DNA from: Bilabrum cf. latius
Lineage: Eukaryota
Length of the DNA: 64,000 nucleotides
NCBI GenBank assembly: GCA_965178125.1
Contig: OZ237750.1
Coordinates: forward strand, 682,001-746,000
Direction: 5' to 3'
Below the pieces are notes generated by a model, which was given only the letters and a program-made list of their open reading frames with translations, did no database searches and was not told where the DNA came from. Of this stretch, positions 24,989-51,044 are shown piece after piece. Position 1 is the stretch's first letter, and each line of letters opens with the position of its first letter. A program made the position numbers and the translations under genes.

Positions 24989-25515
24989 CACAATTGATAC
25001 GCAATGATTTGCAGTTTCGGCGCCAAATAATGCAGATTGGGGTTATTGATATTGGGAAATGAGATTGCAAATACCGCGATAAAGGCCGTTGTTGCAAGAA
25101 TCCGTTCGCGAAAGCGGTTGTAACCATTTAGTTGGGTTACAACCGCTTTCTCGAACGAAACGGATCGATCCAATTTCTGCCGGCCGAGGCCGCAGCAACA
25201 ACACTATCGCCTAAATTAATCAAAATACCATGGACTTTTATGGTGGCGGCAGCCAAAGTGTGAGTTGCTATATCGAGGCACCGATGCATACCACAGGCAT
25301 TGGCGCGCAATCGAAACTGCAGCATTAGACCGATTTGATGACAATTTTACGGCGATAAATCTTTACGACATGCGTTCTTTCTCGTTTTTGTTCCGTCGCA
25401 GTATGATGTGGAAAACTCCGGATCGAGACTTCCGTCCGCGGCACGCCCTAGGGCCGCTGCGGTTGGCAGAGCGACTGGGACGGTCTCTCGTTTCGAGTCT
25501 GGCCTCGGGACCACA
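24989..25515. promoter_or_regulatory. Probable bidirectional promoter region
   Basis: AT-richer 527-bp gap between the divergently oriented EF-hand and dynein genes. No specific motif identified. Confidence 0.4.
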
Positions 25516-28500
25516 ATGGCCGATGGAACCTCAAAATTGGGTCGGAAAGGACGCGGCCCATCTCTTCCGAGCTCCGGCCGACCAGCTGATGCTGGTGCCC
25601 CAAGAGGAGGTCGCAGGATAGCCGCGGGAGGTGGAATGGGGCAGGGGTTGTCGCAGGGCTCGAGCGTTTTCGGATCGCTGGCAGTGTCTGGTGATGTCAG
25701 CTAGACTAAGAGGGCCCCAGCTTCCAAAGGGTTGTACAGCTTTGACACGACAGAGCTTGGCCAGTTCGATTTGAAGCCCTCCAAGGGCGGCCGGCGGCCG
25801 GGAGCGCCCGACTGGACCAAGGCAGCCGACGAGCTGAAGCGCTCAAGGGCGGCGCAAGACCGCCAGCGCGACCGCAGACTCGTAGCATTGCGCGAGTCCT
25901 AGCGGCTGAAGCTCGCCGAGCGCAAGGAGGCTAGAGATAAGGCGGCAAGAACACTCCCGGGGATGCCTGGCGCTGCGGCCCGAGGCCACGGTGCGTACGA
26001 GTCCAAGGAGGCCGGGGGGGGCACCTCACCCATGTCAACGGCGGCGTCCATCCGTCTGCACGCCAGGCAGGATGCCGCGTCTTCCGCTACCGGTGCGTCA
26101 TTGTTCCCTGGAGCGAGCTCAGGGGCGGGAGGGGCCAGCCGCTCGGGCGTTGGCTCCTCTGCAGAGACAAGGACCAAGGGGGGTTACAACGTGGTGGGCG
26201 GCGTGCGCATGGGACCGGGCCCAGCAGAGATCGAGGCGGTTCGGAAAGCGGCAGATGCCGTGGGTGGGGACGACACGGGCGGCAAGGTGTTCCAGGCATT
26301 TGAGACGCTGCGCACCGGGGAGGATGCGGTGACCTTCTTCGCTCACTACGGGCCCCAGTGCCCCGTGAAGTTCGTTTACCTCAACAGGGCGAAGACGGGC
26401 AAGGCGTTCCGCCCTTATGACCTGGTGGTGGTCCCCGAGGAGGACGTGGACCTGGAGCACTTCACGATCAGCGCCAAGGGCGTCGTGCACGTGTGCCCCG
26501 GCGAGCCCTCAGAGTTCCTCACCCTGTCCGAGTGGATGAGGCAGAGCTCCGCCTTTAACGTGGTGCGCAACCTGCGTTTCTTCCGGCAGTTTGTGCCCCG
26601 CAAGATGTTCGACATGTGGAGGACCTTCTCCAACTACAGCAAGTTCAGGCGCAGGCGGCGCGACATCGAGCGGAAGCTATTCATGGCAAGCAAGGTCTTC
26701 TGCAAGCCCATGATGACCATCCGGTAGGCGGTTTCGCACCTGCAGGAGCTGCAGCTGGTGCGTCTGGACGGCGTGCGGATGACGGCAGCGACGTTCGCCG
26801 ACACTCAAGCGCAGGCCCGAGCCATGGCGCAGAAAGAGATCGACAGGCGGCTCGTGCGCATCGTCCGGGTGCTCAAGAGCGTCTGCAAGGACGTCACCGA
26901 TCGTGCCGCCGCAGGGGGTGATGATGATGCCGACGCAGCAGGGGCGATGGGTGGGGGCCGTACGAAGGGGATCCGTGAGGCCAAGGAAGAGGAGATGCGC
27001 AAGGCCAGGGCGCTGCGGCAGGCAGCCATGGAGCAGTCGCGGCTGGGAGCTTTGATTCGCCTGGTGGACTACATGGTGGTGGAGGCCTTCGCGGGCCGGT
27101 GCAAGCAGGACGTGGAGGCCCTCCGCGACGCGATGCACAGCGGCCAGGGCCAGCGAAGCCGCGTGGGTCTCTTCATGACCGAGCTGCGATTCGACGACGA
27201 GGGCACAGTGTTCGCCCCGAACGAGCAGGACTTCTCCTCTGCAATTGAAGAGGTGGTCAGCGAGACGGTGGACATGGTCACCAAGGAGCCCAGGATGCTG
27301 TCAGTGAGGGCGTTCGAGCCCTTCCTGCGCGAGCTGCCCGTGGCCTACGATGCGGCAGCAGCGGGCGGCGTGGCTCCCCTGGGGCTGGACCTCAGGGATG
27401 CGCACAGCTTAGGGGAGGACCCGCGCGTGCTGGCTGCGCTGCCCGAGGGATTCCTGAGCCAGGCCGACGAGGCGCTCATGAAGTCGGTAGAGCCACAAAC
27501 GCGGCTCCTCGGGTTGGGATCGCCCACCGTCGCCGAGCTGTGCTACTCGCTCCCTGAGCTGAGGGCGGGCATGGTGCAGGTGCTTCGCAAGCTGACGGAA
27601 GACTTTGACGGCGCCAGGGCCTTCAGTGAGATGGAGAGCTTCAAGCAGGTGAGGCCTGCCTACGACTACTAGCGGACCCAGGGTCTCTTCGACGAGGACG
27701 GACACTCGCAGCCGTAGCAGATCGCCTCGTCTGATGACGCGTCTTCGGCGGTGCAGGCGGTGTCCGAGCTTCGCCGCGAGATGCAGAAGATCGCGGGCTG
27801 GGACGCGGCTGTGCGCAGCCTGACAAGCACAACCACCCGCGGATGCCTGCACGTGGATGCCAAGGAGCTCAAGGCAGAGCTTGAGCCTCTTACCGAGAGG
27901 GCACTCGGTCGCGTCAAGGAGCAGCTCCTGCACCGCTCGTCGGGCATCTGCAGACGGCTGGCGGACGTGTTCCAGCAGCGAGTCAGCGTGTTTGAGCGTC
28001 GGCCGCAGAGCCTGGACGAGTTTGCTCGACACAAGGAGGATATGGCACGCCTGCAGGAAGAAGACAATCGCCTCATGGAGGACGCCCAGGTTGTCGAGGA
28101 GATGCACAAGCTGGTGACCACGTACCGCGGCAGGATACCCCGCGAGGACGAGTTCCTTGCGGCGGAGATGAAGAGCCTGTTAGGCCGATACCAGGACGCC
28201 ATGATCCAGGGCAAGGGCTTCGTGGAGAGCAGGATGAGGGACATGCGGCACCAGCTGGACATGCGCGTGTTCAAGCTCAAGGAGACTATGGCGCAGCTCA
28301 AGGACCAGGTGAACGAAGGCGAGTTTGTGGACGCGAGCCAACACACCGGCGATATGATCTCCAAGATTGAGTCGGTGGAGGAGCGCGTCGCCACGATGGA
28401 GAACAGAGCTCAGCAGTTCTAGGCGTGGCAGAGGCTCTTTGGTGTGGAAGAGGACACGTTTACCGCGCTAGAGGTTTCTAAGAGCTCCATTCAGAAGCGT

Positions 28501-31500
28501 GCCACCCTGTGGCGCAGCCTTGACGAGTTCATCACCAAGCATGACCACTGGGTGGTTGAACCCTTCCACACTGTCAGCGTGGAACAGCTCGTGGCAGACT
28601 CGAACGCGCTCATGAAGGCCAGCTACGTCGCTGACAGGCAGCTGGGAGATGATGTTTCTGCCATGTTCAAGGAGAAAACGCAGGCCTGGCGGTCCGCGCT
28701 GCCCGTCATCGAGGAGCTCGGGAACCCGTACATGCTCGACCGGCACTGGTCCAAGCTCTATAAGGAGCTCAAGCAGCCCTTCAAGCCCGCAGATAAGAGC
28801 CGGACGCTCGGCGAGCTGATTGACTACGGCGTGCTAGAGATGCGCGACCTAGTGTCCGAGGTCAGCGGCACTGCCTCTGGAGAGCACCAGCTGGAAGAGT
28901 CCCTGCAGGCGATCGCTTCCGAGTGGACAGAGATGAAGTTCCTCACCAGGAACTACCGGGAGCTCAAGCACGTGTACGTGCTGTCAGGGCTGGACGACAT
29001 CTTTGTGCTGCTCGAGGACCACTAGGTGACCCTGCAGACCATGATGGGCTCCCGCTTCATCCAGGGGGTGAGGGATGAGGTGGAGTCGTGGGACCGCCGA
29101 CTGGCGCTCTTGTCAGACACGCTTGACGAGTGGGTACAGTGCATGAAGCAGTGGCAGTACCTGGAGAATATCTTCAGTGCTGAAGACATTCAGCGGCAGC
29201 TCCCCGCTGAAGCCAGCAAGTTCATGACGGTGGACAAGCGCTGGAAGGAGGTGATGCTTCGCACCCACACGAACCCGTCGGTGCTGGCCAGCATCGAGAA
29301 CGGCGACGAGCTCCTGAAGACGTTTCAGCACTGCAACATGCTCCTGGAGGAGATTCAGAAATCGCTCGACGATTACCTCGAGACAAAGCGGTCGGCCTTC
29401 CCCCGCTTCTACTTCCTGTCTGACGAGGACCTACTTGCGATTCTGTCCCAGACGAGGGACCCGCAAGCCGTGCAGCCGCACCTGCAGGGCTGCTTCGACG
29501 CGATGAAGAGCCTCAGGTTTGGCAAGGAGGACCAGGCCGCCGAGATGTTTGGCATGGTCTCATCCGAGAACGAGGAGGTGGAGTTCACGGCGCCGCTAAC
29601 GGCGGCCGGCAACGTGGAGAATTGGCTGGGCGATGTGGAGCGCATGATGCGGCGAACGCTGTACGACGTCACCAAGCAGGCCATGACCGAGTACCCGGCA
29701 GAGCCGCAGGACCAGATCGACCGCAAGGAATGGCTCTTTGGGTATGCGGCACAGCCAGTGCTGACCGTGGACCAGATTTTCTGGGCGGCCAACGTTGAGA
29801 AGGCCATCCGGGAGATGGCCCAGGACCCAGGTGCGCTGACCCGTCTGCTGGAGTTTGTCCGCACGCAGATCAACGCCATGGTTGCTCTCGTGCGCACGGA
29901 CCTCACGAAGCTGCAGCGGCGCATGCTAGGCGCACTGGTGGTGCTCGACGTGCACGGCCGTGACGTCGTGGCTGCGCTGGAGAAGAAGCAGGTGAGTGCT
30001 ATGGAGGACTTCGAGTGGACGCGGCAGCTGCGGTACTACTGGGAGGAAGATGTCGACAACTGCGTGGTTCGTCAGACCAATACGCGCTTCATCTTTGGGT
30101 ACGAGTACATCGGCAACCAGCCGAGGCTCGTGATTACCCCGCTGACAGACAAGTGCTACATGACTCTGACCGGGGCGCTGCACCTTAAGTTCGGAGGCGC
30201 TCCCGCCGGGCCTGCCGGCACGGGAAAGACAGAGACCACCAAGGACCTGGCCAAGGCTTTGGCAGTGCAATGCGTCGTGTTCAACTGCTCTGATGGGCTG
30301 AACTTCCAGATGATGGGTCGGTTCTTCTCTGGGCTGGCTCAGGCCGGTGCCTGGGCATGCTTCGACGAGTTTAACCGGATTAATATTGAGGTCCTATCCG
30401 TGATCGCGCAGCAGATCCTAGTCATTCAGGAGGGTCTTAAAGGCGGCGAGACCCACATCGAGTTCGAGGGCAAGGAGATCCCACTGTCGTCGAGCTTCGG
30501 TGTTTTCATCACCATGAACCCGGGGTACGCAGGCCGAACCGAGCTGCCCGACAACCTGAAATCCCTCTTCCGACCTGTGGCCATGATGGTGCCGGACTAC
30601 AGGCTCATTGCGGAGATCATCCTCTTCTCGCAGGGCTTCGGCGAGGCCTTTGCCCTTTCCAACAAGATGGCACAGCTGTACAAGCTTGCGTCCGAGCAGC
30701 TGTCCAAGCAGAGCCATTACGACTACGGCATGAGGGCGGTGAAGAGCGTGCTGGTTGCGGCTGGCCAGCTCAAGCGGAAGGAGCCCGATGTGGATGAGAC
30801 CATCCTCCTCATCCGGTCGATGCGTGACTCGAATGTCCCCAAGTTCCTTCAGCAGGATTTGCCACTCTTCCAAGGCATCATTAAGGACCTCTTCCCCAAG
30901 GCAGAGGTACCCTTTGTCGACTACGGCAAGCTGCAAGAGGCGATCGAGTTCTAGCTCAAGCTGCGGGGTCTGGCACTGGTGCCCGGTCTCATCACCAAGA
31001 TCATCCAGACGCACGAGACCCAGCTTGTGCGCCACGGGATGATGCTGGTTGGCGAGGCAGGGAGCGGCAAGTCGGTGAACTGGCAGGTGCTTGCGGATGC
31101 GCTGACGCAGCTCAAGAAGGAGGGCATCGTAGACAAGGATGGCTTTTTCCAGAAAGTCACGTCCTACGTGCTCAACCCAAAGAGCGTGCGGATGGGAGAG
31201 CTGTACGGTGAGACGAGCGCTACCACCGGCGAGTGGACGGATGGAATCATCAGCGCGTTGGCTCGCGTGGCGGTGCGTGACACCAGCAAGGACCGCAAGT
31301 GGATCGTCTTCGATGGCCCGGTGGACGCCATCTGGATCGAGAATATGAACACCGTGCTGGATGATAACAAGACGCTTTGCCTGCCCAACGGCCAGCGCAT
31401 CAAGCTCCCCCCCACGCTGCACATGATGTTCGAGGTGGCCGATCTTGCCGTGGCGAGTCCCGCCACCGTGTCGCGGTGCGGCATGGTGTACATGGAGTTC

Positions 31501-34500
31501 GTGCATGTGGGCCTTGACGCCATCATCGAGACGTGGAGCCATGGCCCCATCGAGGACCTCATACCCGAGGAAAGGGACCGGCTCACCGACATGGTAAAGC
31601 AGATCGCTCCCAAGGCCATCGCCTACATTCGGGAGAATTGCAGGCAGGTTGTGCCGGCCACCGATGGGAACATTCTGCAGTCGTTCCTGGCCATGCTCGA
31701 TGCGCTTCTCACGCCCGAAAACGGCGTTATGGGATCTGGCTTCCGCCGGTAGCCCCAGTCGGCCGCTCAGAAGGCGAGAGAGAGGCTTCTGGGCGGCATC
31801 GGAGTGGGTAAGCCGGCCGCAGACAAGGCACCGGCCAGTGGAGCTGGGGCTGGCGAGTCTAAAGAGGCAGATGCTGAGGCAGCTGCCGCACCTTTGGATG
31901 ATGTAGACGCTGCGGCTGCCCTGGTAGCCGACATTGAGGAGGCGATGGATGGTGGGATGCCCGCTGGCGGCGATTCTGGCGGTGAGCGTCCCGACGGCGC
32001 CATGGGTGACGAAGAGCTCGCCACAGTCGTGAACTAGATCTTCACCTTTGCGTTCGTGTGGAGTTTCGGCTGCAACATCCACGATAAGAGCCGCGGAAAG
32101 TTCCAGACGTTTGCCAAGGCTTTGCTCGGCCAGGCACTACCTGCCAGCTTGAAAGACGACGAGGCCGACCTCTACGATTTCTACGTTGACGTGCCCACTC
32201 GCACCATCCGGCCGTGGCACAGTCGGATGGATGCATTCGAGTACACGCCGGGAACCGAGTACTTTGACCTGGTGGTTCCCACTGTGGATACGACAAGGTA
32301 TGCCTACCTCTTTAAGACTCTGGTGGAGCATGGCCGCGGCGTCTACTTTACCGGTGAGACAGGCGTGGGCAAGAGCGTGATTGTGAGCGACACGGTGGCG
32401 CGCATGTGCGCGGGAGATGAGGCCAAGTTCGTCACCAAGACGATCAACTTGTCGGCGCAGACGCAGGCCAGTAATATCGTGGATGCGCTCGAGGACGCCC
32501 TGGACAAGAAGCGCAAGACGCTGCTCGGCCCGCCCGCAGGCAAGCGCATGGTCGTGTTTGTTGACGATCTCAACATGCCAGCCAAAGAGGAGTACGGAGC
32601 CATGCCTCCAGTCGAGCTGCTGCGGCAAGGAATCGACCAGAAGGGCTTCTACGACACGACCAAGTTGTTCTTCAAGAACATCGCGGACTGCATCTTCTGC
32701 GCCGCGTGCGCTCCACCAGGCGGAGGCCGCAGCGAAGTCACTCCCCGTCTGGAGAGGCACTTCCACGCTATCTGGATCGAGAGTTTGAGCCGGCAGAGCA
32801 TGATGACCATCTTTGAGTCCATCCTGGGAGGATTCCTCGCCCACACTGCCGCGAGCATTGCGGATTGCTCCAAGCCGCTCGTATCCGCCGCCGTGAATGT
32901 GTACAAGCACGTCGAGCAGGAGATGCTGCCCACGCCTAGCAAGTCACACTACACGTTCAACCTGCGAGACCTGTCGAAGGTGTTCCAGGGCGTGCTCATG
33001 GTGGACCCTGCGTATCTGCAGGACGAGGGCGCCTTGCTGCGACTGTGGATCCACGAGGAGCTCCGCGTGTTCCGGGACCGTCTTGTGGACGACGACGACC
33101 GCAAGCAGTTCAACGTGCTCATCGAGGAGCAGCTGCAGACCGGCCCCCTGCACGAGGTGGTCAAGGCCTGCCAGGAGGCGGCGGAGAAGGCCGCCGAAGC
33201 GAAGGCGGCGGAGGAGGGGGACGGCGCCGGCGCGGAGGCCTCGCGCATCCTGTCGCACTCGGGCCCCGCTGCGTGGCGCAAGGAGGGGTTCAGAGACCTG
33301 CTGTTCGGGGACTACTTGAGCCGGGACGAGAAGAAATACTCGGAGATTATGGAACCCGAGAAGTTGCCCGAAGTCTTCGCCGAGAATCTCGACGAGTACA
33401 ACATTAGCTTTCCCACGTAGATGCACCTGGTCTTCTTCCGAGACGCAGTGGCGCACATCAGCAGAGTCGCTCGCATCCTTCGGCAGCCGCGAGGCAATGC
33501 TATGCTTGTGGGTGTCGGAGGAAGCGGCCGTCAGAGCCTGACGAGGCTGTCTGCTTTTATTGCCGAGTTCCAGTGCATGGGCATCGAGATCACAAGGACG
33601 TACAATAAGGAGGCCTGGCGAGAGGACCTGAAGCGTGTCCTCATGCAGGCAGGTGCAAAGGCCAAAGACGTGGTCTTCTTGTTTTCCGACACGCAGATCA
33701 AGGAGGAATCTTTCCTGGAGGACATCAACAACATTCTCAACAGTGGTGATGTGCCCAACCTGTACGCGCCTGACGAGTTCGAGGCAATTATCGGCGACGT
33801 GAGGCCATTGTGCAAGGCGGCTGGCAAGATTGACACCAGAGACAACATCTGGCAGCACTACATCTCGCTGGTCCGCAGCCACCTGCACGTCGTCCTTGCC
33901 TTTTCGCCTATCGGCGGGTCGTTCCGGAACAGATGCCGCATGTTCCCCTCGCTTGTGAACTGCTGCACGATCGATTGGTTCAGCGCGTGGCCCGAGGATG
34001 CGCTCTACTCTGTCGCGGAGAGCTTCCTCGGCAAGGAGGGCGGTCGGCCCCTGGGCATCGAGGGCATGGTGGACCCCCTCTGCAACATGTGCGTGAAGAT
34101 CCACAGGTCGGTCGAGGTGTCCTCTGGAAGGTTCCTGCGAGAGAAGCGAAGGTACAATTACACGACGCCCACGTCGTACTTGGAGCTCCTGCGGCTCTAC
34201 ACAGAGATGCTCACCACCTAGCGGGGCATCGTGGATGGCAAGATCTCTCGGTACGAGGGCGGGCTCACCAAGCTGGCTGAGGCCGAGAAGGTCGTGGCTG
34301 AGCTGCAAGTCGAGCTGACCAAGCTGCAGCCCACGCTGAAGAAGGCGGCAGAGGACACCGAGGCGCTGCTGAAACAGCTCGCGGTAGACCAGAAAGATGC
34401 GGACGAGGCCGCTGCACAGGCGCAGAAGGATGAGGAGGCCACCACCAAGCAGGCCGCCGAGGTCAAGGTCATCAAGGACGACTGCCAGAAGGACCTGGAC

Positions 34501-37500
34501 GAGGCGCTGCCGGCGTACTACGGGGCATTAAAGGCGCTTGATAGCCTAGACAAGGCGCAGATCAACGAGGTGAAAGGGTTTAAGAAGCCGCCAGACCTCG
34601 TCGTGACCGTGCTCGAGGCCGTGTGCATCCTTCTGCAGGAAAAGCCCGACTGGAGCACGGCCAAGCGCGTGATGGGCGACATGAAGTTTATCGATCGGCT
34701 GAAGGGCTACGACAAGGACAGCATCGATCCCAAGGTCATCAAGAAGGTGGGCAAGTACATCAAGATGGAGAAGTTCCAGCCCTCCGAGGTCAAGTCGGTC
34801 TCTCTCGCCGCCACCTCCCTGTGCATGTGGGTCCGCGCCATCTTCAAGTACGACGCTGTGGCCAAGAACATCGAACCCAAGCGGAAGGCCCTCAATGAGG
34901 CCATGGCAAGCCTGGAGAAGGCACAGGCCATCCTTGAGCAAAAGAGGGCGGCTCTCCGCGAGATTCAAGCCAAGGTAGCCGACCTTCAGCGGCAGTACGA
35001 GAACTCTGTCAACGAGAAGGAGCGGCTCGAGCGGCAGCAGAAGCAGACCGAAATCAAGCTGGGGCGGGCGCACAAGCTTATCGACGGACTCGGTGCCGAG
35101 GCGGGCCGCTGGAGGGAGGCGCAGGTGCAGCTGACGGAGGACAAGAAGAACCTCACCGGAAATATGATCCTGTCTGCCGGCTGCATCGCGTACACTGGGC
35201 CGTTCACCGCCGACTTTAGGCGGACAATGTCCGCCGGTTGGGTCCAGACTTGCCAGGCGAAGCGGATCCCCGTGGACCCTCGCTTCGAGCTGAGCCGCAT
35301 CCTTGCGGATCCTGTGGAGGTGCGCGAGTGGAACATCCAGGGACTCCCCGCGGACGACTTCAGCACCGAGAACGGCCTCTTTGCGACTCGGGGTCGCCGC
35401 TGGCCTCTGATGATCGACCCGCAGGGCCAAGCCAACCGGTGGGTCAAGCAGATGCAGAAGGACAACGGCCTCCGCGTGATCAAGCTTTCCGAGGCGGATT
35501 TCTTGCGGACGCTGGAGCACGGCATCCGCTTCGGGCAGCCTATTTTGCTCGAGAACGTGGAGGAGGAGCTGGACCCTGCCCTGGAGCCGGTCCTTCTCAA
35601 GCAGGTCTTCAAGAAGCAGGGGCTCGCCACTCTGCGGCTGGGCGACAGCGACGTGCCGTACAGCGATGACTTCAGGTTCTACATCACCACGAAGCTGGCG
35701 AACCCGCACTACATGCCTGAGGTGTGCGTGAAGGTGACGGTGATCAACTTCACGGTGACCATGTCTGGCCTGGAGGACCAGCTCCTCGTAGACGTGGTGG
35801 CGCACGAGCGACCCGACCTCGAGGAGCGCAAGAACAAGCTGATCGTGTCGATCGCCTCGGACAAGCGACAGCTCAAGGGCATTGAGGACAGCATCCTCAA
35901 GATGCTAGCAGAGGCGCAGGGCGACATCCTCGAGGACGAGTCGCTGATTGACTCCCTCGGGCAGTCCAAGAAAACCTCGGCCGCGATCAATGAGCGCATG
36001 CACGAGGCAGAGAGGACCACGAAAGAGATCAATGAGGCGCGAGAGGGGTACAGGACCGTGGCCACGCGAGGCTCTGTTCTGTACTTTGTGATTGCTGACC
36101 TTGCGAACGTCAATGCCATGTACCAGTTCTCGCTGCAGGCGTTTCAACGCCTGTACAACATGCGCATCGAGAAGAGCGAGGCCTCAGAGGACCTCGACAA
36201 GCGCCTGGACATTCTGACCAACGACATCACTAAGTCGTTCTACGAAAACCTCTGCAGAGGCCTCTTCGAGCGCGATAAGATGCTGTATTCGTTCCAGATC
36301 GCCGTTTCCATCGCCAAGCAGGCCGGACGCATCACGGACGAGGAGTGGCAGTTCTTCCTCGTAGGATCTGCGGCCAAGGACGACGGTGGTAAGGCCCAGC
36401 ACCCTCCCACGCAGGAATGGCTTTCGGCCAAGGGCTGGATCCAGGTGCTCGGACTAGAGAAGGCAGTGGGCGGCGGGTCCCCGCTGGTCGGCATTGCCGA
36501 CGATTTGGGTACGCAGCTGGCTGGCTGGAAGTCGTTTGCTACGGACGAGAACCCTCACTTGGCCAAAATGCCCGAGCCGTGGGAATCGCGTCTGTCCGAC
36601 TTCCAAAGGCTGCTGGTGCTGCGCTGCATCCGCGAGGAAAAGACGAATTTCGGTGTGCGCGAGTTCGTGCGGAGGCAGCTGGGCGAGAAGTTCTGCGAGC
36701 CTCCGCCCTTTGACCTGGACGGGGTGTTCGAGGACAGCTCGAGCACCATGCCCATCGTGTTTGTCCTGAGCGCGGGAGCCGACCCCGTGCAGTACCTGCT
36801 GAAGCTCGCTGAGGAGAAGGGCAAGCGCGACAGCTTGCGGATCATCTCGCTGGGCCAAGGGCAGGGACCCCTCGCGGAGAGGCACATGGAGGAGGCAAGG
36901 AGGTCTGGCGACTGGGTCTGCCTGCAGAACTGCCACCTCGCCGAGTCGTGGCTCCCACGTCTGGAGGCAATCCTGGAGCAGACCATGGGCGCGGGGGCCA
37001 GCGGCTCCTCCGAGATCCACTAGGACTTCCGGCTGTGGCTCACCTCCATGCCGAACCCCAAGTTCCCCGTGCCGATCCTGCAGAACAGCATCAAGCTGAC
37101 CCAGGAGCCGCCGCGAGGGCTCAAGGCGAACCTGAGGCGGACATTCCTGGACCTCTCCGATCGCGAGTACGAGGGCTGCACCAAGCCGAGGCCGTTCAAG
37201 AAGCTGCTGTTCGGCCTGGCCTTCTACCACGCCCTCATCCTCGAGAGGCGCAAGTTCGGCGCGATCGGGTGGAACATCCCTTACGAGTGGATGAACAGCG
37301 ACCTGCAGACGGGCATCATGCAGCTGCGCATGTACCTCGAGGAGCAGCCTAATATCCCTTACGAGACGCTCAACGCAGTGATCGGAGACATCACGTACGG
37401 CGGACGCGCCACGGACGCGTGGGACAAGCGCACGAACCTCTCCATCCTGCGCCGGTTCTTCTGCCCCGAGGTGCTGGAGGACGGGTACCGCTTCAGCGAG

Positions 37501-38580
37501 AGCGGCATGTACTTCGCCCCAGCGGAGGGTGACCTCGCCGGGGTCCGCGAGTACATCGAGCAGCTACCTCTGGACGATCCCCCGGACACGTTCGGCCTGC
37601 ATCCGAACGCCGCCATCACGCTTCAGCAGAAGGAGAGCAACTAGCTGATGTCGACGCTGGTGAGCATGCAGAAGGGAGACGGTGGAGGCGGAGGAGGAGG
37701 GTCCGGTGGCCAATCACCTGACGAGGTGGTGAGTGTCATCGTGGAGGACGTGCTGAAGCGCCTGCCCGAGCCCTTTGACAGCAGCAAGGCGCACCCGGAC
37801 ACGTTCGCGACGATCGAGGACGGCAGCATCAACTCTCTCGGAGTGTTTGCGGAGCAAGAGATGGTGCGCTTCAACGGCCTGACGCAGGTGGTGCGAGCCA
37901 GCCTGCTGGAGATGAGGAAGGCCATCAAGGGTCTGGTGGTGATGTCCCCGGAGCTGGAGGCCATGTACAGCGACTTTTAGTTCCAGCGTGTGCCGGTCCC
38001 GTGGGAGGACGCAGCCTACCCCTCGCTCAAGCCGCTGGGCAGCTGGATCGAGGACCTGATGGAGCGGCTGCAGACGCTGCAGCTGTGGCTGACAGACGGC
38101 CCGCCCAAGTGCTTCTGGCTCAGTGGGTTCTTCTTCCCGCAAGGTTTCATGACCGGCGCGCTGCAGACGTACGCTCGCAAGACTCGGATCGCGATCGACA
38201 CGTTGACGTTCAAGACCAACATCCTCTCTCTGAACCAGGAGGACGTGACGGTCGCGCCCGAGGACGGGGTCTACGTGTATGGGCTGTACTTGGAAGGGGC
38301 TCGCTGGGACAAGGAGAACGGCAGGCTGGCAGAGATGACGCCGGGCGTTCTGTTCGACTACATGCCGTGCATCTGGCTCGAGCCGGTGGAGCAGTCGGCG
38401 TTCAGCAAGAAGGAGCTGGACTACGATTGCCCCGTGTACAAGACCTCGCGGAGGGCGGGGACTCTGAGCACCACGGGCCATTCGACGAATTTCATCGTGA
38501 CGCTGCAGCTCGACAGCGCCAAGCCGCAGGACCACTGGATCAGGAGGGGGGTTGCGCTCCTCTCGCAGCTGGACGATTGA
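25516..38580 (+). CDS. DNAH6: Axonemal inner-arm dynein heavy chain, DNAH6-like (4354 aa)
   Basis: Single 13,065-nt frame ending at TGA. P-loops GPAGTGKT, GEAGSGKS, GETGVGKS and GVGGSGRQ, plus FPRFYFLS, CFDEFNRI, RWPLMIDPQGQA, LQNCHLA and C-terminal HWIRRGVALL. 15 in-frame TAG (25702, 25900, 26725, 27670, 27715, 28420, 29023, 30952, 31750, 32035, 33418, 34219, 37021, 37642, 37978). The subfamily call rests on remembered motifs and is less certain than the family call. Confidence 0.95.
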
Positions 38581-38785
38581 TGCATTCACCTGAAGTTTTC
38601 ATTCACGATTCGCGCAACAAATGTGACCGGTATGTATATTCCCATGCTCGTGCCGCGGAAGGCACGCGGGGCCTCGCCCGTCGGCCGACGGCAATTTTCA
38701 AGTTCTGTCGAACGTTCCTTGGCCGGGTTCGCTCGGCGAAAGGTCCACGCATGCGACTCCCTCAGAGCACAAGAAAAGAATAGGC

Positions 38786-40281
38786 ATGCCTGTCGCAGGT
38801 GTCGAAAGCTGGCAGGAAGATGAGGATTATTCCAAGGAGGAGGTTGTAGATGCCGTCGAGATGCACGACAAGCTGGAGGGCGACGCGCTTCCCGGCTACG
38901 CAGAGTTTCAGTGGAGCAAGTCCGAGGAACCGCATCAAATCCGCCGCCGGGCACTCATCAAGGCACATCCTGAGGTTAGATAGATACATTGATGGCATAT
39001 ACTCTGTTTCTTTAGCCATGAGCGCGCCTATCCCGTGCCATTCGCTTCCGTTCGACTGCACATCAACCGCGCATCTCAACGTCTCGGCAAATGCATCGCA
39101 GGTGCTGAAGCTTGTTGGCCCCGACATTGCAACTGCGTACTGGACAGCTGGGTTTGTTTCAATCCAGCTCTTCCTTGCGTACCAAGTCAGGAACATCGAT
39201 TGGGCATACATTGTCCTGGTGGCTGCGACAATCGGAGGACTGCTCGCCCAGAGCTTGACCCTCGCAATGCACGAGATTTCGCACAACCTGGCATTCCGAA
39301 CACAGTTCCCCAACCTTGTGCTCGGGATCTTTGCCAATCTTCCAATGGGCCTCCCAGCATTCGGGTGAGATCCGCAGGGCGTCGCCTCGTGCTATCCGGT
39401 GCAAGTGTTTGCAGAACTCCGCCTGCCCTGGAGTCGCCCAGCAGCCCTGTATTCGAACTTGTCACAACCACAACAATTCTTAAACTATTCGCAGAACCTT
39501 CCGGCGGTACCACCTGGAGCACCACAAGTACCAGGGCGAGCACGGCGTGGACGTGGACGTCCCGACCAAGATGGAGGCGCAGATCTTCCGCTCCCGCCCC
39601 ATGAAGTTCCTGTGGATGTTCCTGTAGCCCGCATTCTACTCTTTGCGCCCGCTGGTGGTGAGCCCGAGGGCCCCCGGCGCCGTGGAGATCGCCACCGTGA
39701 TCAGCCAGGTCACCTTTGACGCTGCCGTGTACTTTTTCTGGGGCCCCAAGGCCCTGACCTACCTGATCATCTCCACGCTGCTGGGCATGGGACTTCACGT
39801 GATGGCGGGGCACTTCGTGGCCGAGCACGCGGCCATGGTGCGCGGGCAGGAGACGTACTCATACTACGGCCCCCTCAACATCTTCGCCTTCAACGTGGGA
39901 TACCACAACGAGCACCATGACCTCGCGGGGGTGCCGTGGACCAGGCTGCCCCAGCTGCGCGCCATGGCTCCCGAGTTCTACGAGCTGCCGCAGCACCATT
40001 CTTGGGCCAAGGTGGTGTACATGTGGATCATGGGCAGCGAGGCGCAGCAGGAGGCGGAGCAGGACAAGGAGGACCGCGTGGAGAGGACGAGGAGGGCGCG
40101 CTCGGGCTCCCGCGGGGGCAGCGACAGCGGCTCCGAGGTGAGCGATGCATTTGAGGAGCAGCTCGAGCAGGACCGCCGCGCCAGCGCGGCCGAGTATGGG
40201 CCCTTTTCTCGCGTGAAGCGGAACACGCTCAGCGACAAGCAGCGCCGCATCATCGAAAAGATGGACAAGCGGAGGGCGTGA
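38786..40281 (+). CDS. DEGS1: Sphingolipid delta-4 desaturase (DES1 family), 412 aa
   Basis: Exons 38786-38974, 39102-39364 and 39495-40281. N-terminal EEPHQIRRRALIKAHPE, His boxes HEISH, HLEHH and HNEHH, and ETYSYYGPLN. TAG at 39625 in FLWMFL[TAG]PAFYSLRPL. Ends at TGA. Confidence 0.95.
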
Positions 40282-40456
40282 GCGGTAGCTCTGCTATGCT
40301 TACATTCAATACGCGCATGCCTTATGATCGGATGCCGTCTGCCAGCTGTGTACTTCGCGCCACAAGACAATTCTCAATCAGCAGGATGTGTGACGACTGG
40401 TGGTGCACTGCACGTCAGACGTAGCGCGTGCACACGTTTCGGCGCACATATCGACG

Positions 40457-43400
40457 ATGCGATTACGCATGCTCCCATTGGTAGTTGCAATAGCTGTTCC
40501 CACGGTGTTTGCTTACAGTAGTGGGTACAATGGCGGCTTTGGCTGCGTGTCGAATCCACAGGGACCCCACGGAGGCGGCTCGAGCTCCTCGACGTTCGAC
40601 CTCAAGCTGTACTCTGATTCGACATGCTCAACTGAACTAACTAGCGGATACGATGGAGAATCATCGTCCGATGTGTATCTCTGCCTGTCTAATACAGATG
40701 GTTCATCGACAATGCGGGGCGTGTGGATGTTTGCATACCCCGATGGCTCATCCCCAACGACTACAAACGTAGGCACCAGCTTTGTAGGGTCACTTCTAGC
40801 CGGAACAGGCAGCAGCAATATGTGAGGCTGCCTTAATTTCCCCACTGGCTTGCCTTGACCCTCATCGTGACTGTCGATTCGGCCCGAGTACTGACTATGA
40901 TATCGCAGCAAGACCGTGAGTGGATGCAACGGAGTTACACACCTGAACGCCAACAGCAAGACCGACATGGTAATTCGATGGCAGCCACCTGATGTTGGAA
41001 CGGGCGATATTATGTTTAGGATGCACATCGTGTATTCTGGAACAAGCTACTATACGATAGAGAAGAAAATCGTGGAGAAGTTCGTGGTGTCTACTACAAC
41101 GCTGAGCGGAGTTACAATAGATGCCGGGACCAACTAGATCACCGCTACGTTTAGCGGCATTGTCAAGAGTGCGGCGAATGGAAATTTGGATGCGACCGCC
41201 TTCTCGCTGTCCTCCACCGGTGGCACCGCAACCGTGACTGGAATATCCTCCGTTACGCGAGGTGCCAGCAGCAGGATTTGGGTCATAGTCCCGACCATTA
41301 CAGGGACTATCGACGGCACTGAAAGCGTGCAGATTACCCTGGCGAGCCGCGCCTCGGTGAGGGACAATTTCAGTCGCTGGGTGCCCCTGCCGGACCCCGT
41401 GCCCACTGTCACCTTGGCAGCACCAGCTGCCAGCCCCACCCCATCCACCACGGCCTCGGCGACACCGACCCCGTCAACGACCACAGCAGCGTCATCCAGC
41501 GTGACCCCGAGCATCTCCAGCTCACCATCGACGACGAGCTCCGCCACCCCCACCCCTAGCACAACGAGCACGCCGTCGGCAACGGCGACCAGCAGCCCAT
41601 CCACTGGCGCGTCGGCCAGCGCAACGCCAACTTCATCCACGACGGCATCCGCATCAGCTTCTCCGTCGACGACAGCATCAGCATCGCCAACGTCGTCCAC
41701 ATCTCCGAGCCCCAGCCCGAGCACGTCCGTCTCGGCCTCGTCCAGCCCCTCTGCCTCGGCCAGCGTGACGGCCTCCCCCTCTGCGTCCAGTTCGGCCTCG
41801 CCCAGCACTAGCACCAGCCCTACGCCGTCCAACCTGCCACAGGGCAGCGCGGTGCAGTTCCCCGCTGACAATGTGGTGCCCATCGGGGGCGACACCAGCG
41901 ACCCGGTCATGAAGCTCAGGTGGAGGCTGGAGGATGCCCAGGGCAGCGAGTTCGTGGCCGGCACCAGCACCGAGCAGCCCACGCACGTGCGCATGTCGCT
42001 GGAGCTGCAGCAAGCGGCCCCCGCGGACACGGAGTGGGTGGGGCTGGCCCAGTCGTCCAGCGGACTGATGCTGGGTGGGGGCACCGGCCGGGCCGTGGTG
42101 GGGCTGCTGGGGCAGAACCCGCCGCGGGTGCTCCCGTTCGACATGGTGAGCACGAGCGGTGGCAAGACCGCCGTGCTGTCGAGCGAGGCCTCTGGCAATC
42201 TGTTCGAGGCCGGTGATTCTGCCTTCGCGGGCTCTCCTCCCGTGGGATCGCAGGCGCTCGAGGATGGCGCCAGGGCCGTGGTGGTCGTGCGCCGACCGCT
42301 GGGGGATGCCGAGGGTGCCATTGCGGGGAGTGCTATCGATGGTGCGTGGTCTGCAGAGGAACAAGCCAGCACCGGCTTCATCTGGGCCATGGGACGCATG
42401 GATGCGCAAGGCGGCAGCTCTGGTGATGCCATCGGATACCACACGTCGCGTGGGACCGGCAGCGTGGTGCTTCGGCCGGCTGTGGTCTGCGACAATACCG
42501 TGGTGTGCTCTGGGCGTGGCAGGTGCGACGTGGTGCAGTCTGCCAGCGGGGGCTTGCAGTGCGTGTGCGACCCAGGCCACGCCGGCTCCAGCTGTAGCGA
42601 GTGCGCGGCTGGGTTCGCCCTGGATGCCGCAAGCGGGCGGTGCCGACTGCCCCCTCAGGGGGCTGATCCTGGTGCCAAGGGGCCTGGTGCAGTGTCTCGC
42701 GTGGTGCTCGGGCTGCGACTAGCCGTTGACTTCGACCAGGACTACGAGTCGGACCCGGATGCCTTTGAGATGCAATTCGCCGCCGATGTGTCGGGGGCTC
42801 TGGGCATCGAGTCGTCTCGCGTGCTGGTGGAGTCCGTGGAGCGCGGCAGCGTGGTGGTGCGCTTCAGCATCTAGCCAGGCGCCAACGACACCGCTGCGAG
42901 CTACAACGACCTGGTGGTCGATCTGAGCGCTCAAGTCAACAACGCGAGCAGCCCCCTGCAGTCCCAGGGCACGCTGACGTCGAGCGTCGCGGCAGGCAGC
43001 CTGAATGTGTTGGGCTTTGTGCTGCCCGAGGCCCCTCGCACTGGGTTCGCCGACATGGCAGACAGCTCGTTCGCCTCCCAGCAAGAGCTGCTGGACGGCC
43101 TGCAGATGATGTGGAGCCTGACCGACAGTGAGGTGCCCGGCGGCGGTTCTGCCGTTGTGTCTGGGTCGGGCAGTGACCCCGCCGGGCAGTACCTGCACGC
43201 TCGGCTTGTGCACGACCGATCGTCAGGTTGGTTCGCCCTGGGCTTCAACCCCAGCGATGCCGCCATGCCGGGGGCCCATTCCGTGGTGGCCACGCTCGGG
43301 GCGGCATCGAGCGAGGAGGCAGTGCGAGAGTACGACCTGACGGCGAGGTCTGGCTTCGGGTCTGGGATCCGGCGGGATGCGGAGAGCAGCGTGAGCAATA

Positions 43401-44524
43401 CGAGGCTGTACGAGCGGAACGGCAGCTGGGTGATGGAGTTCACGCGGGCCCTGGACACGGGCGACTCGGGCGACCACGTGCTGCCCGCGGGCGGATCTGA
43501 AGGGGAGCTGTTCATGCTGGTGGCCAGGCACGGGTCAGCCGACAGCATCGAGTCGAGCGGGGCGCACAGCCTGGCCGGCCGCTCCGTGGTGAGTGTGGAC
43601 CTGAGCACAGGTGCGGTGGAGGCTGTGGCATTGGCAGGGCTGATCGTGGCGCACGGCGTGATGATGGGCCTGGCTTGGGCCGTGTTGGTGCCCACTGGAA
43701 TCCTGGCTGCCCGGTTTTGCAAACGCGTCGGCGCAAGCCCGCCCAACATTGAGCGGATCAAGAGCGCACACGTGCAGTCCGTGAGAGGAAGAGGGGGAGC
43801 CGTACCTGCTGCTGACATACCTACGGGCCCACGTGTGAGCCTGTAGCATGTCGCGCAGGCAAACCCTGGTCCCGCGTCAGGGTTGCAGAAGAGCCACCCC
43901 GCAGACGTTCCGAGTGGAGCTAGCGCACCTTCCAACGATGCCAAGGTCGCAGATGCGAACAAGGCGGCAAGGCGCGCCGCGCCAGCGTCGGTTCCGTGCT
44001 GGTTCCGCACCCACCAGGTGGCACAGGGCCTCGCCGTTGTGCTGACCCTGATTGGCTTCGCGGTGATCCTCGCTCACGTGGGCTCCGGTGAGCACTTCAC
44101 GAGCGGGCACTCTGTGATTGGGCTCGTGGTGGTGCTGATGGCGCTGTGCCAGGGGGTACTGGGGGCCGTGCGACCGCACAAGGGAGACGACTGGAGGGAG
44201 GCTTGGGAGTGGGCGCACAAGGGGCTCGGCTACGCGGCATGCGTGCTTGGCCTGGTGGCGGTGGTCCTCGGCGCAGGCCTGGCATCCGACAAGGCCGGCA
44301 TTCCTCGCGGAGGGTGGGTAGGCGTGACGGCGGCAGCGGCGGCCGTGTGGGCTGTGGCTTACATTACGCTGGCTGTCGTGTACGCCGTGTGCATCCCGAC
44401 TGGGTCGAACGGGTGCGACCCCAAGCCAGTGAACGGGGAGACTGTCGTGCAGGTCCCCTCGCACCAGCAGGCTGTGCAGGTGAACGCTGCCGGTGATGGC
44501 GCGAATCCTGCCGAGCAGGCGTGA
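40457..44524 (+). CDS. Reeler + Ser/Thr mucin stalk + DOMON/EGF + cytochrome b561 protein (ferric-chelate reductase FRRS1/SDR2-like), copy 1
   Basis: Signal peptide. Intron 40822-40908. Reeler motif GVTH..W.PP..G.I.FR, DOMON motifs WVGL and GWFALGFN, and b561 His motifs AHGVMMGLAW, WFRTHQ, HSVIGL and WAHKGLG. TAG at 41135, 42872 and 43844. Ends at TGA. Confidence 0.85.
41702..44359. repeat. Large inverted repeat, arm 1 (near-identical to ~55368-57838)
   Basis: About 41702-43732 and 43976-44359 match the reverse complement of about 55820-57838 and 55368-55752 with only scattered substitutions. Confidence 0.9.
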
Positions 44525-44653
44525 TACTGAACTGTGTTCCTACTATTTGCGTTTCGCTTGCCTCATCAATTTCAAAATCAGATACAATACCTTGTCAGCA
44601 GAACACCAAAAGAGAATCATGAACCACAGCCCTAGGGGCGTAGGCGGCGAGTA

Positions 44654-47600
44654 TCACCGGTCAAAGAGTGGGCACTCGTGCCAGCTGCCTTTGCCTTTGA
44701 AGTCTCCATGGCCGTTTGGCAGCAGCTTCCCGCAGCGGTAGCAGAACTAGGTTTTGCCCTTGCACGCGGGAGACTTGCACTTCATGCAGTTGCACCCCGC
44801 AGTCCTCTCGACCACCACTTCACACTTGGGACACTTCTTCGTCTTGTGCTGCTCCTGCCACCGCTTGAAGCTCTCATCCACCGTGCCGTTTTCTCGCTTC
44901 CACTCCTGGTACTAATCGCAAGTAGAGCCTTCGTGCCAGGGCACATCGCAGGACAGGCAAAATGCCTACTTGCAGTAGAGACAGTCCACCCGGGAAGCAC
45001 CTTCCTCCGACACGATGGGCGCGCCACACTTTTTGTTGGGGCAGTAGACCAGCTTGCCCATCGAAGACATCGCCGCCTCCGTCAGCAGCTGCTCGTACAG
45101 TTCCAACGTCTTCTTGCCATCCTCGGCATCTTCCAGGATGGCGTGCACGTCTCCGCCACCAATGGCGGCCTCGCATTCGGCGGAAAAGCACGTCACATTC
45201 GCGGAGTTGTCCTTGATGCTGCGTGTCACGTGATCCCTCACGCACCCGATGCAGGCCGTGTGCCCACATCCACCCACGTACACGTGGTCGAGCGAGTAGC
45301 CGCCCTCTGACCCGTCTGCCCCGGCCCCAAAGCAAATGTCACACATTGCCAGGAAAGGCTTTGATGCGGCCTACTTCCTCGTTACGCGAAGGTAGTTCCG
45401 GTTCCTTACCGCGACCTTGTTGCCTGACCGAATCATCTGCTCGATTTCACGCTGCTGGGCACGGAATATGGCACCATCTCTGCTTTCCTTGAGCCAGTGC
45501 ATCACCTTGGGCTTGCAGCGATGCATGGCTCGCCATCGCCGAATCGTCACAGTTTGTGCCCACACCTGTGAGACTCTGTAGAGAAGAATCCCGTGTTGCA
45601 GGGACTGCAAGGCTTGCCGCGCTGTTTGCTTGACTACTGAGCCAGGCCCGCCGTCACTCCCTCGCGAATCTGCTTTCTCGCCGTCCACTGCCTCGCGAAT
45701 CGTTTCAGAGTCCTCTCGACTCACTCGGAGGGACATGCTTGCAAGAGATCGAGCTCCCACATCAACGACATCGTCCAGTGTGCTGCCAGGCACCTGCGAC
45801 AAAGAGGCTCCGATGCTGCCGGCGGCTGGCGCGACAGACGTGACGCTATGAACTGGAATAGCCGCAGGTTCCGTTGCTGACGCACTTGGCGTTCTACCAT
45901 CGGCTGGCGTGCCGGCAGCTGCACCATACACGCCGGCAGTCCCACTTGACATTGGCATTACACCATGCACCGAGCCGAAACCGGGATTTGCGATCGCAGT
46001 GTAGGCGGGCGGTGGAGCGCACGCTCCAGGGGTGCCCACAGAAGCAGGCACAGCTGATCTCTCTGCTGATCCCGCTACAGATGGTCCGAACCCAGGAATA
46101 GCGACAGGTGCCACAGGCTTGCGCGTACCAGCTGCCGCGGCGGCCAGAGTGGAGCCCGATGAGGCTGCCATGGCGTCTTCGCTCTGTTCAGGCTCATGCT
46201 GCTCTGTTCCTTTGAGCGCTGCTATTTCCTTCGCCTGTTCGGCAGCCGTTGCGGACGCGTTCTCGCCCAGCGGGCCAATGGCTGTTCTCAGAGCTGGACA
46301 TGAAGCCTTGACAGCGCGAAGTACCACCCCGCACTGGTGCAGGAGGGCTCCAGTATGGGCCGCGTGGGACTCTCGTTCGTCCTGCAGCGTTTGTGCCAGG
46401 GCCTGGGACCGCATCCTCTCGCGAGCGAGGCAAGCGTACATCTACCTGGTGATATCATCCCTCTGTTCCCGCCTCTAACGGATCGCTTCGTCCGCCTGGT
46501 CGTGCGTCCGGAGCACCAGCGCGACCAGGTCGTCCTTGCTGGCAGCCTGCAGCACCGCCATGTCAGGCCGCTGCATGGGTTCAGCGATCGAGGTCTCCCT
46601 CGCCAGGGCAGCTGGGCGGTCGAGCGCAGCCGCCCCTGAAAAGGCACCAGCCCCCGACGCAGGACCAGGGATCGACAGTGTCCCTGCAGCGGTCGCGGAT
46701 GCTGCCGAGTCATCATGGTGGCCGCTGGACCCGCCCCGGGCTGCTGCCTCCTCTGCCTGGAACTGCGCTTGCAAGCGGGCTGCCATGGCCGCGTCAGAGT
46801 CAGCGCTGCTTTCGCTCGTTCCCGAAGGTACCCCTTCGTTTGGCCCAGCACCTAATCTTTGCCCATTCCCGCTTGGTCTGTCCTGCGCCGAGGCAGTCTC
46901 AACTGCGCCGGCAGCTTCCAGCGCGGTAGCACGCTCCTCTGCTTCTGCTCGCCGAAGCAGAGCAGGGGCTCTGATGTCGCGAACGGCTTGCATGCTCTCA
47001 TAAAGTGATTCATCACCAACCAGCAGTGCAAGTCGCTGAATTTCGAGAGGCTCCACGACTCTGGTGCACCGCTCATGGGCAAGCATTCGTCGGAGTTGCC
47101 GTTCCCACGGCACTTGCTGCGGTTTGTTGCCATCCAATTTCCCCGAGTCACCACTCCCATGCCCAAACGAGGATCTTGAAGTCTGCCCTTCTTCTCCATT
47201 GCCTACCGTTTCGTGACTCGTGTGCTCTGCTTCGCGCTCATCACTCGCAGACAAATGTGCAGCAGGGTCAGATCCAGCTGACAGCACGCCCCCAAGCCCA
47301 GACACCCAATCTACAATACCGGCTATTGCGGTTGAAGGCTCATTTTGACCGCGGGGATCAGCGCGGCGATCAGCCGCCGCAGGGTCGCTAGCACCACTGG
47401 CGGTCCTCGCAGAACCCGACGACCGGACGGCCGGCGTTCCTATTGAGCAATCTTGAAGCTGCGACGGTACAGGCAGGTCATTCTACTTTAAAAATTGCAC
47501 GAGATCAGTCGCCGATGGAGAGCTACCGTACACGCTCTTGGCAATGTCCCTGAATTCTGCCTGCATTGAACCGGATCGAGAACGAATCGCCAACATGCAT

Positions 47601-49087: not shown

Positions 49088-49426
49088 CGGGGTAACCGCG
49101 AATATATTTACAAAGAAGTTCAAATGCAGATTGATTGGCCGCTTTTGCCGCTGAGGAGGGTTGCAGGAATCGTGGAAGGTTTGCTGGTATATTTGGTTAG
49201 TAAGGTACTATTTTGAAGGATCCCCTCGAGCGGCCTGGAACGCATTCAAACACGCTGGAATGCTCGGTCTTCGTGGATCAGTGTTGAGAAAGGCTGTTCG
49301 TAAGAGTGTTTGCTACTCTGTGTTTCCAGATTGCTGTCGTACATACCCGCGAATATCCTACTAAAGCTCTAGTTTGTCGTTCGCACCTTGCAACAATCAC
49401 GGGTCGCAGATGGAGCGAGAAGTTCC

Positions 49427-51044
49427 ATGCTGGCCCGCGCAATGAGCACTCGTGCTGCAGCTGGATTGGACGCGAAGGTGACTGCGGTGCTTGGTTCTCA
49501 GTGGGGGGATGAAGGCAAGGGAAAGCTTGCCGATGTGCTCGCGGAAGGCTACGATATCGTCGGTAGGTTCAATGGCGGTGCTAACGCAGGACACACAGTG
49601 GTGGTGGGCGACAAGAAGTTTGCTTTCCATTTGTTGCCTTGCGGGCTTGTTTATCCCCACACCAAGAATATCCTGGGGAACGGAACCGTAGTTAGCTTGT
49701 CCGGCCTCTACGAGGAGCTTGCCCCACTCGACCAGGAAGGAATCTCTTGGGAAGGAAGGCTCTTCTTGTCGGACCGCGCGCATGTGCTGTTTGACTTCCA
49801 CCAAGAGGTGGACGGCGTTCTCGAGGCTCGCCGCGTGGGAGCGGGCGGCAAGATGATCGGCACGACCAAGAAGGGCATCGGCCCTTGCTACACCTCCAAG
49901 ATGCAGAGGAATGGTGTTCGTATGGGCCAGCTGAGAGACTGGGACACGTTCGCCAATGTGTACAGGCAGCTGGCCACGGACACGGCCGCCCAGTACGACG
50001 TGGACATCGACGTGGAGGGCGGGCTGGAGCAGTTCAAAGAGCTCAGGGACCGGGCCCTCCCTATGATCGTTGATGGGGTGCAATTCGTCAACCAGGCCTA
50101 CAACGACGGCAAGCGGATCATCACCGAGGGCGCCAACGCCGCCATGCTGGACGTGGACTACGGGACCTATCCATTCGTGACCTCCAGCTCCACCACGGCC
50201 GGGGGGGTCAGCACCGGGCTGGGGCTCGCGCCCAGGAAACTAGAGTGCGTGATCGGGGTCATGAAGGCGTACACCACGCGCGTGGGCGCGGGACCGTTCC
50301 CCACTGAGCTGACGGACGAGCGCGGCGGCGGTGACCGGGAGCTGAACAGCGCCGAGACCGACATTGGCCTGCACATGCAGAACGTGGGGTTCGAGTACGG
50401 CGTGACGACTGGTCGCAAGCGCCGGTGCGGCTGGTTCGATGCGGTGGTGGGTCAGTACTCGCACATGATCAACGACTACAGCTCCATCAACCTCACGAAG
50501 CTCGACGTGCTGGACGACTTGGAGGAACTCAAGATCGGTGAGCAAGTGCTTGCTCGCTCGCTCGCTGGCGAGCTGGTTGCATAGATTTTGTACCCCCGGC
50601 CTAATTTTTGCCCGTCCTGTGCTCCGTATCTACCCCTTTTCGTGCTTGCTGTCGACTTTTGTCGATCACCGCAGCAACCGCTTATCACATCAACGGGGAG
50701 CGCCTGCCAGTCGGCTCGATGCCATCCACGCTGGAAGACCTTGCCAAGGTGGAGGTCGAATACGAGAGTGAGATTTCGTGTCTTTGTTTGGTCTTTGTTT
50801 CTACGTCTTGGTGCGCATTGGTCATGCGTCTGCTCAACCAACGCACAGTGGCAGCTTTATTATTGGCCTCGTTATCGCAGCTGTACCGGGCTGGAAGCAG
50901 AACACGGTGGGCACAACCGAATGGGACGAGTTGCCCGAGAACGCGCGCAAGTATGTAGAGCGTATCGAGCACCACGTCGGGGCCCCAGTATCTTGGATCG
51001 GAACAGGGCCTGGTAGAGATGAGATGGTTCGCAAGGGATTCTGA
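49427..51044 (+). CDS. ADSS: Adenylosuccinate synthetase (455 aa)
   Basis: QWGDEGKGK, GGANAGHT, IGTTKKGIGP, GTYPFVTSS, KAYTTRVG, GVTTGRKRRCGW and LTKLDVLD. Exons 49427-50537, 50675-50767 and 50881-51044. No in-frame TAG. Ends at TGA. Confidence 0.97.

Follow-up and report, generated by a model that had tools for sequence, protein, structure and literature searches.

UAG very probably encodes glutamine in the nuclear code of a Cafeteria-related stramenopile

In a 64,000-nucleotide stretch of DNA from Bilabrum cf. latius (contig OZ237750.1 of assembly GCA_965178125.1, positions 682,001 to 746,000; hereafter the window, with coordinates counted from its first letter), TAG codons interrupt a dynein heavy chain gene and the adjoining DES1 gene, as well as an RBR E3 ligase gene, a gene for a SacI-domain protein and a pair of paralogous DOMON/cytochrome b561 genes. 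We conclude with high confidence, from sequence comparisons, that UAG encodes glutamine, because three independent lines of evidence agree: the homologous column of the DES1 TAG, the columns of the dynein TAGs, and the codons that stand opposite TAG in L001, a metagenome contig from a related organism. The preliminary description of this DNA had named glutamine as the most likely meaning of UAG, and all three lines bear it out. The window thus very probably represents a stramenopile nuclear code, with a dynein sister to that of Cafeteria roenbergensis, in which UAG specifies glutamine and UGA, together probably with UAA, serves as a stop. The DNA itself is eukaryotic nuclear and GC-rich (0.56-0.64 in 4-kb segments).

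The clearest view of TAG as a codon comes from the dynein gene.

25342-38580, plus strand: intronless frame of an axonemal (inner-arm type) dynein heavy chain, 4412 codons, with its first ATG at 25516 and a TGA stop at 38578-38580.

Over 25342-38577 this frame holds 15 TAGs, no TAA and no TGA in its 4412 codons, while the other two frames of the same stretch hold 118 (3 TAA and 115 TGA) and 96 (24 TAA and 72 TGA) of these two codons, a disparity far greater than chance would give. Reading TAG through lengthens the longest open reading frame (ORF) of the window from 933 codons, as bounded by the standard stops, to 4412, and reading TAA through leaves the longest ORFs unchanged. TAG is clearly a sense codon in these genes. 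The TGA at the end of the frame falls at the same last residue in 98 of the 106 homologues that are aligned across the last 17 residues, and UGA, as judged from these alignments, is still a terminator there. Across the roughly 9270 codons of all the frames examined there were 49 in-frame TAGs and no in-frame TAA, a contrast that is partly circular, as the ORFs are themselves bounded by TAA and TGA. Within dynein the glutamine codons are CAG (180) and CAA (20), beside the 15 TAGs, in keeping with the earlier statement that CAG is the dominant glutamine codon here.

The DES1 gene, in which the reassignment was originally flagged, follows directly downstream.

38786-40281, plus strand: DES1 (sphingolipid delta-4 desaturase-like) gene, with exons 38786-38974, 39102-39364 and 39495-40281.
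39625-39627, plus strand: the flagged in-frame TAG, codon 195 of the 412-codon coding sequence, in exon 3.

With the exons joined, the coding sequence has 412 codons, begins with the ATG at 38786, ends with the TGA at 40279-40281 and contains this one internal TAG only. Its two introns, of 127 and 130 nucleotides (38975-39101 and 39365-39494), are both of the GT..AG type and are absent from a contig of the sequencing run X5, and the product carries an FA_desaturase domain (Pfam, E=5.5e-20). Positions 39601-39654 read MKFLWMFL[TAG]PAFYSLRPL, exactly as first described. Among the best 150 of 1580 DES1-like representatives, 147 align at the TAG, with Q in 95, Y in 15, F in 11, M in 7, N in 6 and L in 5 (one-letter residue codes here and below). 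The columns that flank it are conserved (W 103/146, P 91/147, Y 136/148, R 145/148 and P 131/148), so that the motif W..LQP.FY..RP, which had been given as conserved in DES1/DEGS1 proteins, agrees with the homologues at the flanks and at the TAG itself. A search of PDB sequences with the DES1 query gave no matches. The intron content of the two adjoining genes differs markedly, the 13.2-kb dynein gene having none and the 1.5-kb DES1 gene two short ones.

For dynein, columns were compiled from 120 listed proteins of 1734 matches, and sites with fewer than 60 aligned residues were left out. The 15 in-frame TAGs, all on the plus strand, are as follows, with the codon of L001 where it is of interest:

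25702: left out, 2 aligned residues.
25900: left out, 6 aligned residues; TAG also in L001.
26725: K 38, R 22 and Q 3 of 102.
27670-27672: in the variable tail, N 23, G 21 and D 16 of 105; CAG in L001, with conserved flanks.
27715: left out, 43 aligned residues.
28420: T 29, S 19, A 12 and Q 12 of 112; TAG also in L001.
29023-29025: Q 100 of 114, a nearly invariant Gln column; CAG in L001.
30952-30954: Q 54 of 120, Gln being the commonest residue; CAA in L001.
31750: left out, 13 aligned residues.
32035: M 26, L 24 and A 16 of 110.
33418: Q 47 and R 33 of 120.
34219-34221: Q 95 of 120, a strongly conserved Gln column.
37021: P 44, D 20, E 17 and Q 4 of 120.
37642: E 21, A 18, S 11, Y 10 and Q 9 of 112.
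37978-37980: a hydrophobic column, L 60, V 22, I 12, M 8 and Q 5 of 111; the poorest fit to Gln.

Four of the 11 usable sites thus fall in columns where Q makes up at least 39% of the homologues. Such Gln-rich columns account for 36.6% of the 183 Gln positions of the dynein itself, for 2.3% of the 3850 other columns, and for no more than 1.9% of the positions that any other single residue occupies. The probability of finding at least four of 11 sites in them is 0.62 if TAG is Gln, and none of the other 19 residues gives a value as high as 5e-5. Summed over the columns, and using an empirical substitution table drawn from the dynein alignments themselves, the log-likelihood relative to Gln was -4.8 for K, -5.0 for A, -5.4 for E, -16.2 for L and -24.7 for Y. 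The tabulation of TAG columns that had been proposed as a check therefore favours Gln over Leu, Glu, Tyr and Lys in both DES1 and dynein. Gln had been described as common at 29023, 30952 and 33418, and it is so at all three, though with a strong share of Arg at the last; of the two sites that had been set aside as variable, 37021 is indeed mixed, but 37978 is not variable, its column being dominated by Leu.

The third line of evidence is DNA from a relative. Two predicted proteins in metagenomes of the Joint Genome Institute, 86-88% identical to the dynein tail, both end at TAG-like breaks in a short-fragment search, and L001 is the 10,086-nucleotide contig behind one of them. Positions 3680-10086 of L001 were compared with 25342-31600 of the window. 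The dynein frame of L001 contains 14 TAGs, no TAA and no TGA in 2135 codons, and such a TAG-only frame implies that the organism behind L001 shares the code of the window's organism. Protein identity between the two dyneins is 84%, and their codons differ at 51% of third positions. There are 20 aligned TAG sites, and the 18 that are not shared pair with CAG in ten cases, with CAA in two, and with codons for I, K, H, T, E and S in one case each. All 12 of the pairs of TAG with a Gln codon lie in conserved contexts, and around 29023 the exchange is reciprocal, the window reading LEDH[TAG]VTL[CAG]TM and L001 LEDH[CAG]VTL[TAG]TM. A second gene could be compared in the same way.

21488-25042, minus strand: fast-evolving neighbouring gene, family unassigned, a 1185-codon frame that ends in TAA and holds seven in-frame TAGs.

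This gene is 60% identical to its counterpart in L001, a contig that stops short of the gene's end and thus of its TAA. Of the 19 TAGs that are not shared, seven face a codon for Q, three one for A, two each S, E and G, and one each R, D and P, so that CAG or CAA is the partner of 19 of the 37 unshared TAGs of the two genes combined. With substitution frequencies taken from the same two alignments, the log-likelihood of these pairings relative to Gln was -57.7 for His, the next best residue, about -58 for Ser, -60.6 for Glu, -81.2 for Lys, -99.4 for Tyr and -123.5 for Leu. TAG therefore exchanges with CAG and CAA between two related genomes as expected of a synonymous change, new TAGs arising and reverting mostly by C-to-T and T-to-C transitions at the first position of CAG. 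The turnover of TAG is rapid, with two of the 20 dynein sites (25900 and 28420) and none of the 19 sites of the neighbouring gene being common to both relatives.

The RBR gene, which had also been put forward in support of glutamine, is less favourable.

44657-45652, minus strand: C-terminal RBR (RING-IBR-RING2) part of an E3 ligase gene, with four TAGs at 45371-45373, 44966-44968, 44912-44914 and 44747-44749.

A homologue search returned one protein of 215 candidates at E<=1e-5, and no family column could be built. In the one close relative, represented by the predicted proteins P0124 and P0275 (61% identity), 45371 and 44966 correspond to E and 44912 to K. Both of these proteins stop just before the column of the fourth TAG, which would fit a TAG at that site in the relative too. 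The solved relatives listed in PDB alignments were all ARIH1, which aligns to three of the TAG sites and has R, W and E there. The RING2 site T[TAG]FCYRC at 44747 exists as described, but is not shown to be a Gln position, ARIH1 having Glu there and the proteins of the close relative ending before it.

These RBR residues are among several observations that weigh against glutamine, or against parts of the proposed code, and those that bear on the residue would suit a UAG that is a sense codon for something else (Glu, Lys, His, Leu, Tyr or a non-standard amino acid). Among the 15 close dynein homologues listed, Leu occupies 37978 in 11 of the 14 that align there, and 10 of the 15 have Glu at 37642 and 10 of the 15 Pro at 37021. 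Gln stands opposite 12 of the 18 unshared dynein TAGs, as against a conservation of 88% for ordinary Gln codons; four of the six exceptions (amino acids 121, 145, 240 and 792) belong to the tail, where the residues on either side differ as well, and the shortfall is probably attributable to several TAGs being in this poorly aligned region. UAG is also known as Leu, Ser or Glu in other lineages, as reported in PMC11687900. Nevertheless, the L001 codons place His, Glu, Lys, Tyr and Leu all more than 57 log units below Gln, the deep columns likewise rank K, E, L and Y below it, and a count of at least four Gln-rich columns in 11 is improbable, at the level given above, for every alternative. A non-standard residue would not be expected to swap freely with CAG and CAA in otherwise identical contexts. 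We regard a residue other than glutamine as highly improbable.

Other explanations concern the way in which UAG is handled. UAG might be Gln inside genes and a context-dependent terminator of some of them, as in ciliates without a dedicated stop; such ambiguous codes exist (PMC4967479), and the one window, with a single homologue-supported gene end (the TGA of dynein), offers too few ends to judge, which is a further point against the code as we propose it. On the other side, no gene in the window needs a TAG terminator, and the conserved C-terminus of dynein is reached only if each of its 15 TAGs is translated, making an ambiguous code unlikely. The status of UAA is a related weak point, as its role as a terminator is suggested by its absence from the coding frames and by three long ORFs that end in TAA, the ends of which have no homologue support. 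Nor did a tRNA scan find any gene in the 64-kb window or in L001, and it is conceivable that there is no dedicated suppressor tRNA and that UAG is read by the near-cognate tRNA-Gln(CUG), eRF1 having lost its recognition of UAG. A near-cognate tRNA-Gln can read stop codons in organisms with the standard code, according to PMC13192750 and PMC4150775, and yet 15 sites in a single message of 4412 codons would require near-complete decoding at each of them; we consider near-cognate reading very unlikely. Finally, the mRNA might carry CAG through editing of a genomic TAG, or the TAGs might reflect a pseudogene or errors of assembly; no observation spoke in favour of any of these. The contigs of run X5 show no differences from the window across all 15 dynein TAG sites and the DES1 TAG, though contigs drop rare variants. 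The type of this run is not on record and was guessed to be DNA, and no RNA run is listed among the public runs that carry the window sequence; its DES1 contig is read as RNA-derived because it skips three GT..AG intervals (the two DES1 introns and 40822-40908). A spliced contig with an unchanged DES1 TAG argues against RNA editing, partial editing being compatible with it in view of the dropped variants. Further points against this group of readings are the absence of TAA and TGA from the dynein frame, the TAG-only frame of L001 at 16% protein divergence with two TAG sites in common, and the occurrence of identical sequence in runs from more than one study. On these grounds we reject editing, a pseudogene and errors of assembly alike, and regard them as scarcely credible.

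Under reassignment to glutamine, the mechanism would plausibly be that of other such codes, for which a tRNA-Gln(CUA) together with an altered eRF1 is the established model, CUA having been argued to be the sole anticodon that reads UAG but not UAA, and eRF1 changes having been reported in other UAG-reassigned lineages (PMC5304391). UAG would be decoded by a tRNA-Gln whose anticodon, CUA, arose by a single change from that of tRNA-Gln(CUG) and pairs with UAG and not with UAA, and eRF1 would no longer compete effectively at UAG. The eRF1 gene does not lie within the window.

Among the 120 listed proteins, the named organism with the best-matching dynein is Cafeteria roenbergensis (63% identity); oomycetes come next, at about 56%. 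A FastTree phylogeny was built from 22 of 121 rows, namely the window, 13 rows selected to cover the range of named organisms and the eight best unnamed rows except P0004, with 99 rows left out. In this single-gene, midpoint-rooted tree the window falls within a stramenopile group, where its sister is Cafeteria plus P0003 (Shimodaira-Hasegawa-like support of 100). Both of these dyneins are full-length predictions under standard gene calling, that of Cafeteria having 4208 residues and no internal break, which we take to mean that their dynein genes probably lack in-frame TAGs. We lean, if only slightly, towards the view that a Cafeteria-related clade of heterotrophic stramenopiles, with at least two well-diverged members, independently evolved UAG as Gln while keeping UAA and UGA, which would be the first variant of a stramenopile nuclear code.

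UAG as Gln with UAA and UGA as stops is the pattern of NCBI table 15, a code change of an already known type. Reassignment of UAG alone to Gln is described for the fornicate Iotanema spirale (PMC5304391) and for Protocruzia tuzeti and two lineages of phyllopharyngean ciliates (PMC11687900). Their codes are like the present one in having a sense UAG at Gln columns and a UAA that is not sense, as is probable here from the frames examined, and the same tRNA-Gln(CUA) and altered eRF1 would be expected; the present one differs in its stramenopile host, its GC-rich DNA (about 60%), a homologue-supported TGA stop and at least two diverged relatives that share it. UAA and UAG both stand for Gln in many ciliates, ulvophycean green algae, hexamitid diplomonads, Streblomastix and Amoeboaphelidium (PMC11687900). 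Such codes (table 6 type) share with ours the amino acid and the one-step link between CAG and UAG, whereas no in-frame TAA was found here in the frames examined. UAG alone, with UAA kept, is also reassigned in the rhizarian exLh and some ciliates, to Leu, and in Scotinosphaera, to Ser (PMC11687900 again), two residues that are here rejected by 123 and 58 log units, respectively. A literature search, with most subscription journals and supplements outside its reach, found no nuclear reassignment of UAG for stramenopiles or bicosoecids.

As UAG-only reassignments are described as rare, UAA and UAG usually changing together (PMC11687900 and PMC5304391), another independent instance, in a supergroup-level lineage new to the list, enlarges the record of how the code evolves. 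The full-length dynein of Cafeteria, without internal break, helps to date the change, and the lineage offers a test case for convergence of eRF1 changes. If the proposed clade is real, it would provide a GC-rich and intron-poor system, possibly already in culture, for studying the uncoupling of UAA and UAG. There is also a practical consequence, in that a standard-code annotation of this genome or its relatives would cut genes at every TAG, as public protein fragments show. The fragments P0125, P0276, P0277, P0124 and P0275 all start or end at TAG columns, and they are, to judge from these breakpoints, standard-code gene calls on a genome in which TAG is sense.

Close relatives of the window's organism recur in public data, since runs X9 and X11, from different studies, contain DNA that is about 6% diverged over the whole stretch 25342-45341. 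Some further features of the window were also observed. A single X5 contig extends from the 3' end of DES1, over the spliced 87-nucleotide GT..AG intron at 40822-40908, into the frame of the next gene (40282-41731). Either, then, the transcripts of the two genes adjoin or overlap one another, or the first exon of the next gene lies within the 3' region of DES1. Three further genes were noted:

40901-44521, plus strand: DOMON and cytochrome b561 gene, Ser/Thr/Pro-rich.
55167-58142, minus strand: its near-identical paralogue in the opposite orientation, likewise Ser/Thr/Pro-rich.
49304-51019, plus strand: adenylosuccinate synthetase gene (Pfam, E=1.7e-134).

The two DOMON/cytochrome b561 paralogues have a TAG in common, within RFSI[TAG]PG. 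In the adenylosuccinate synthetase gene the similarity in frame is lost after profile position 339 of 416, which suggests an intron near 50540.
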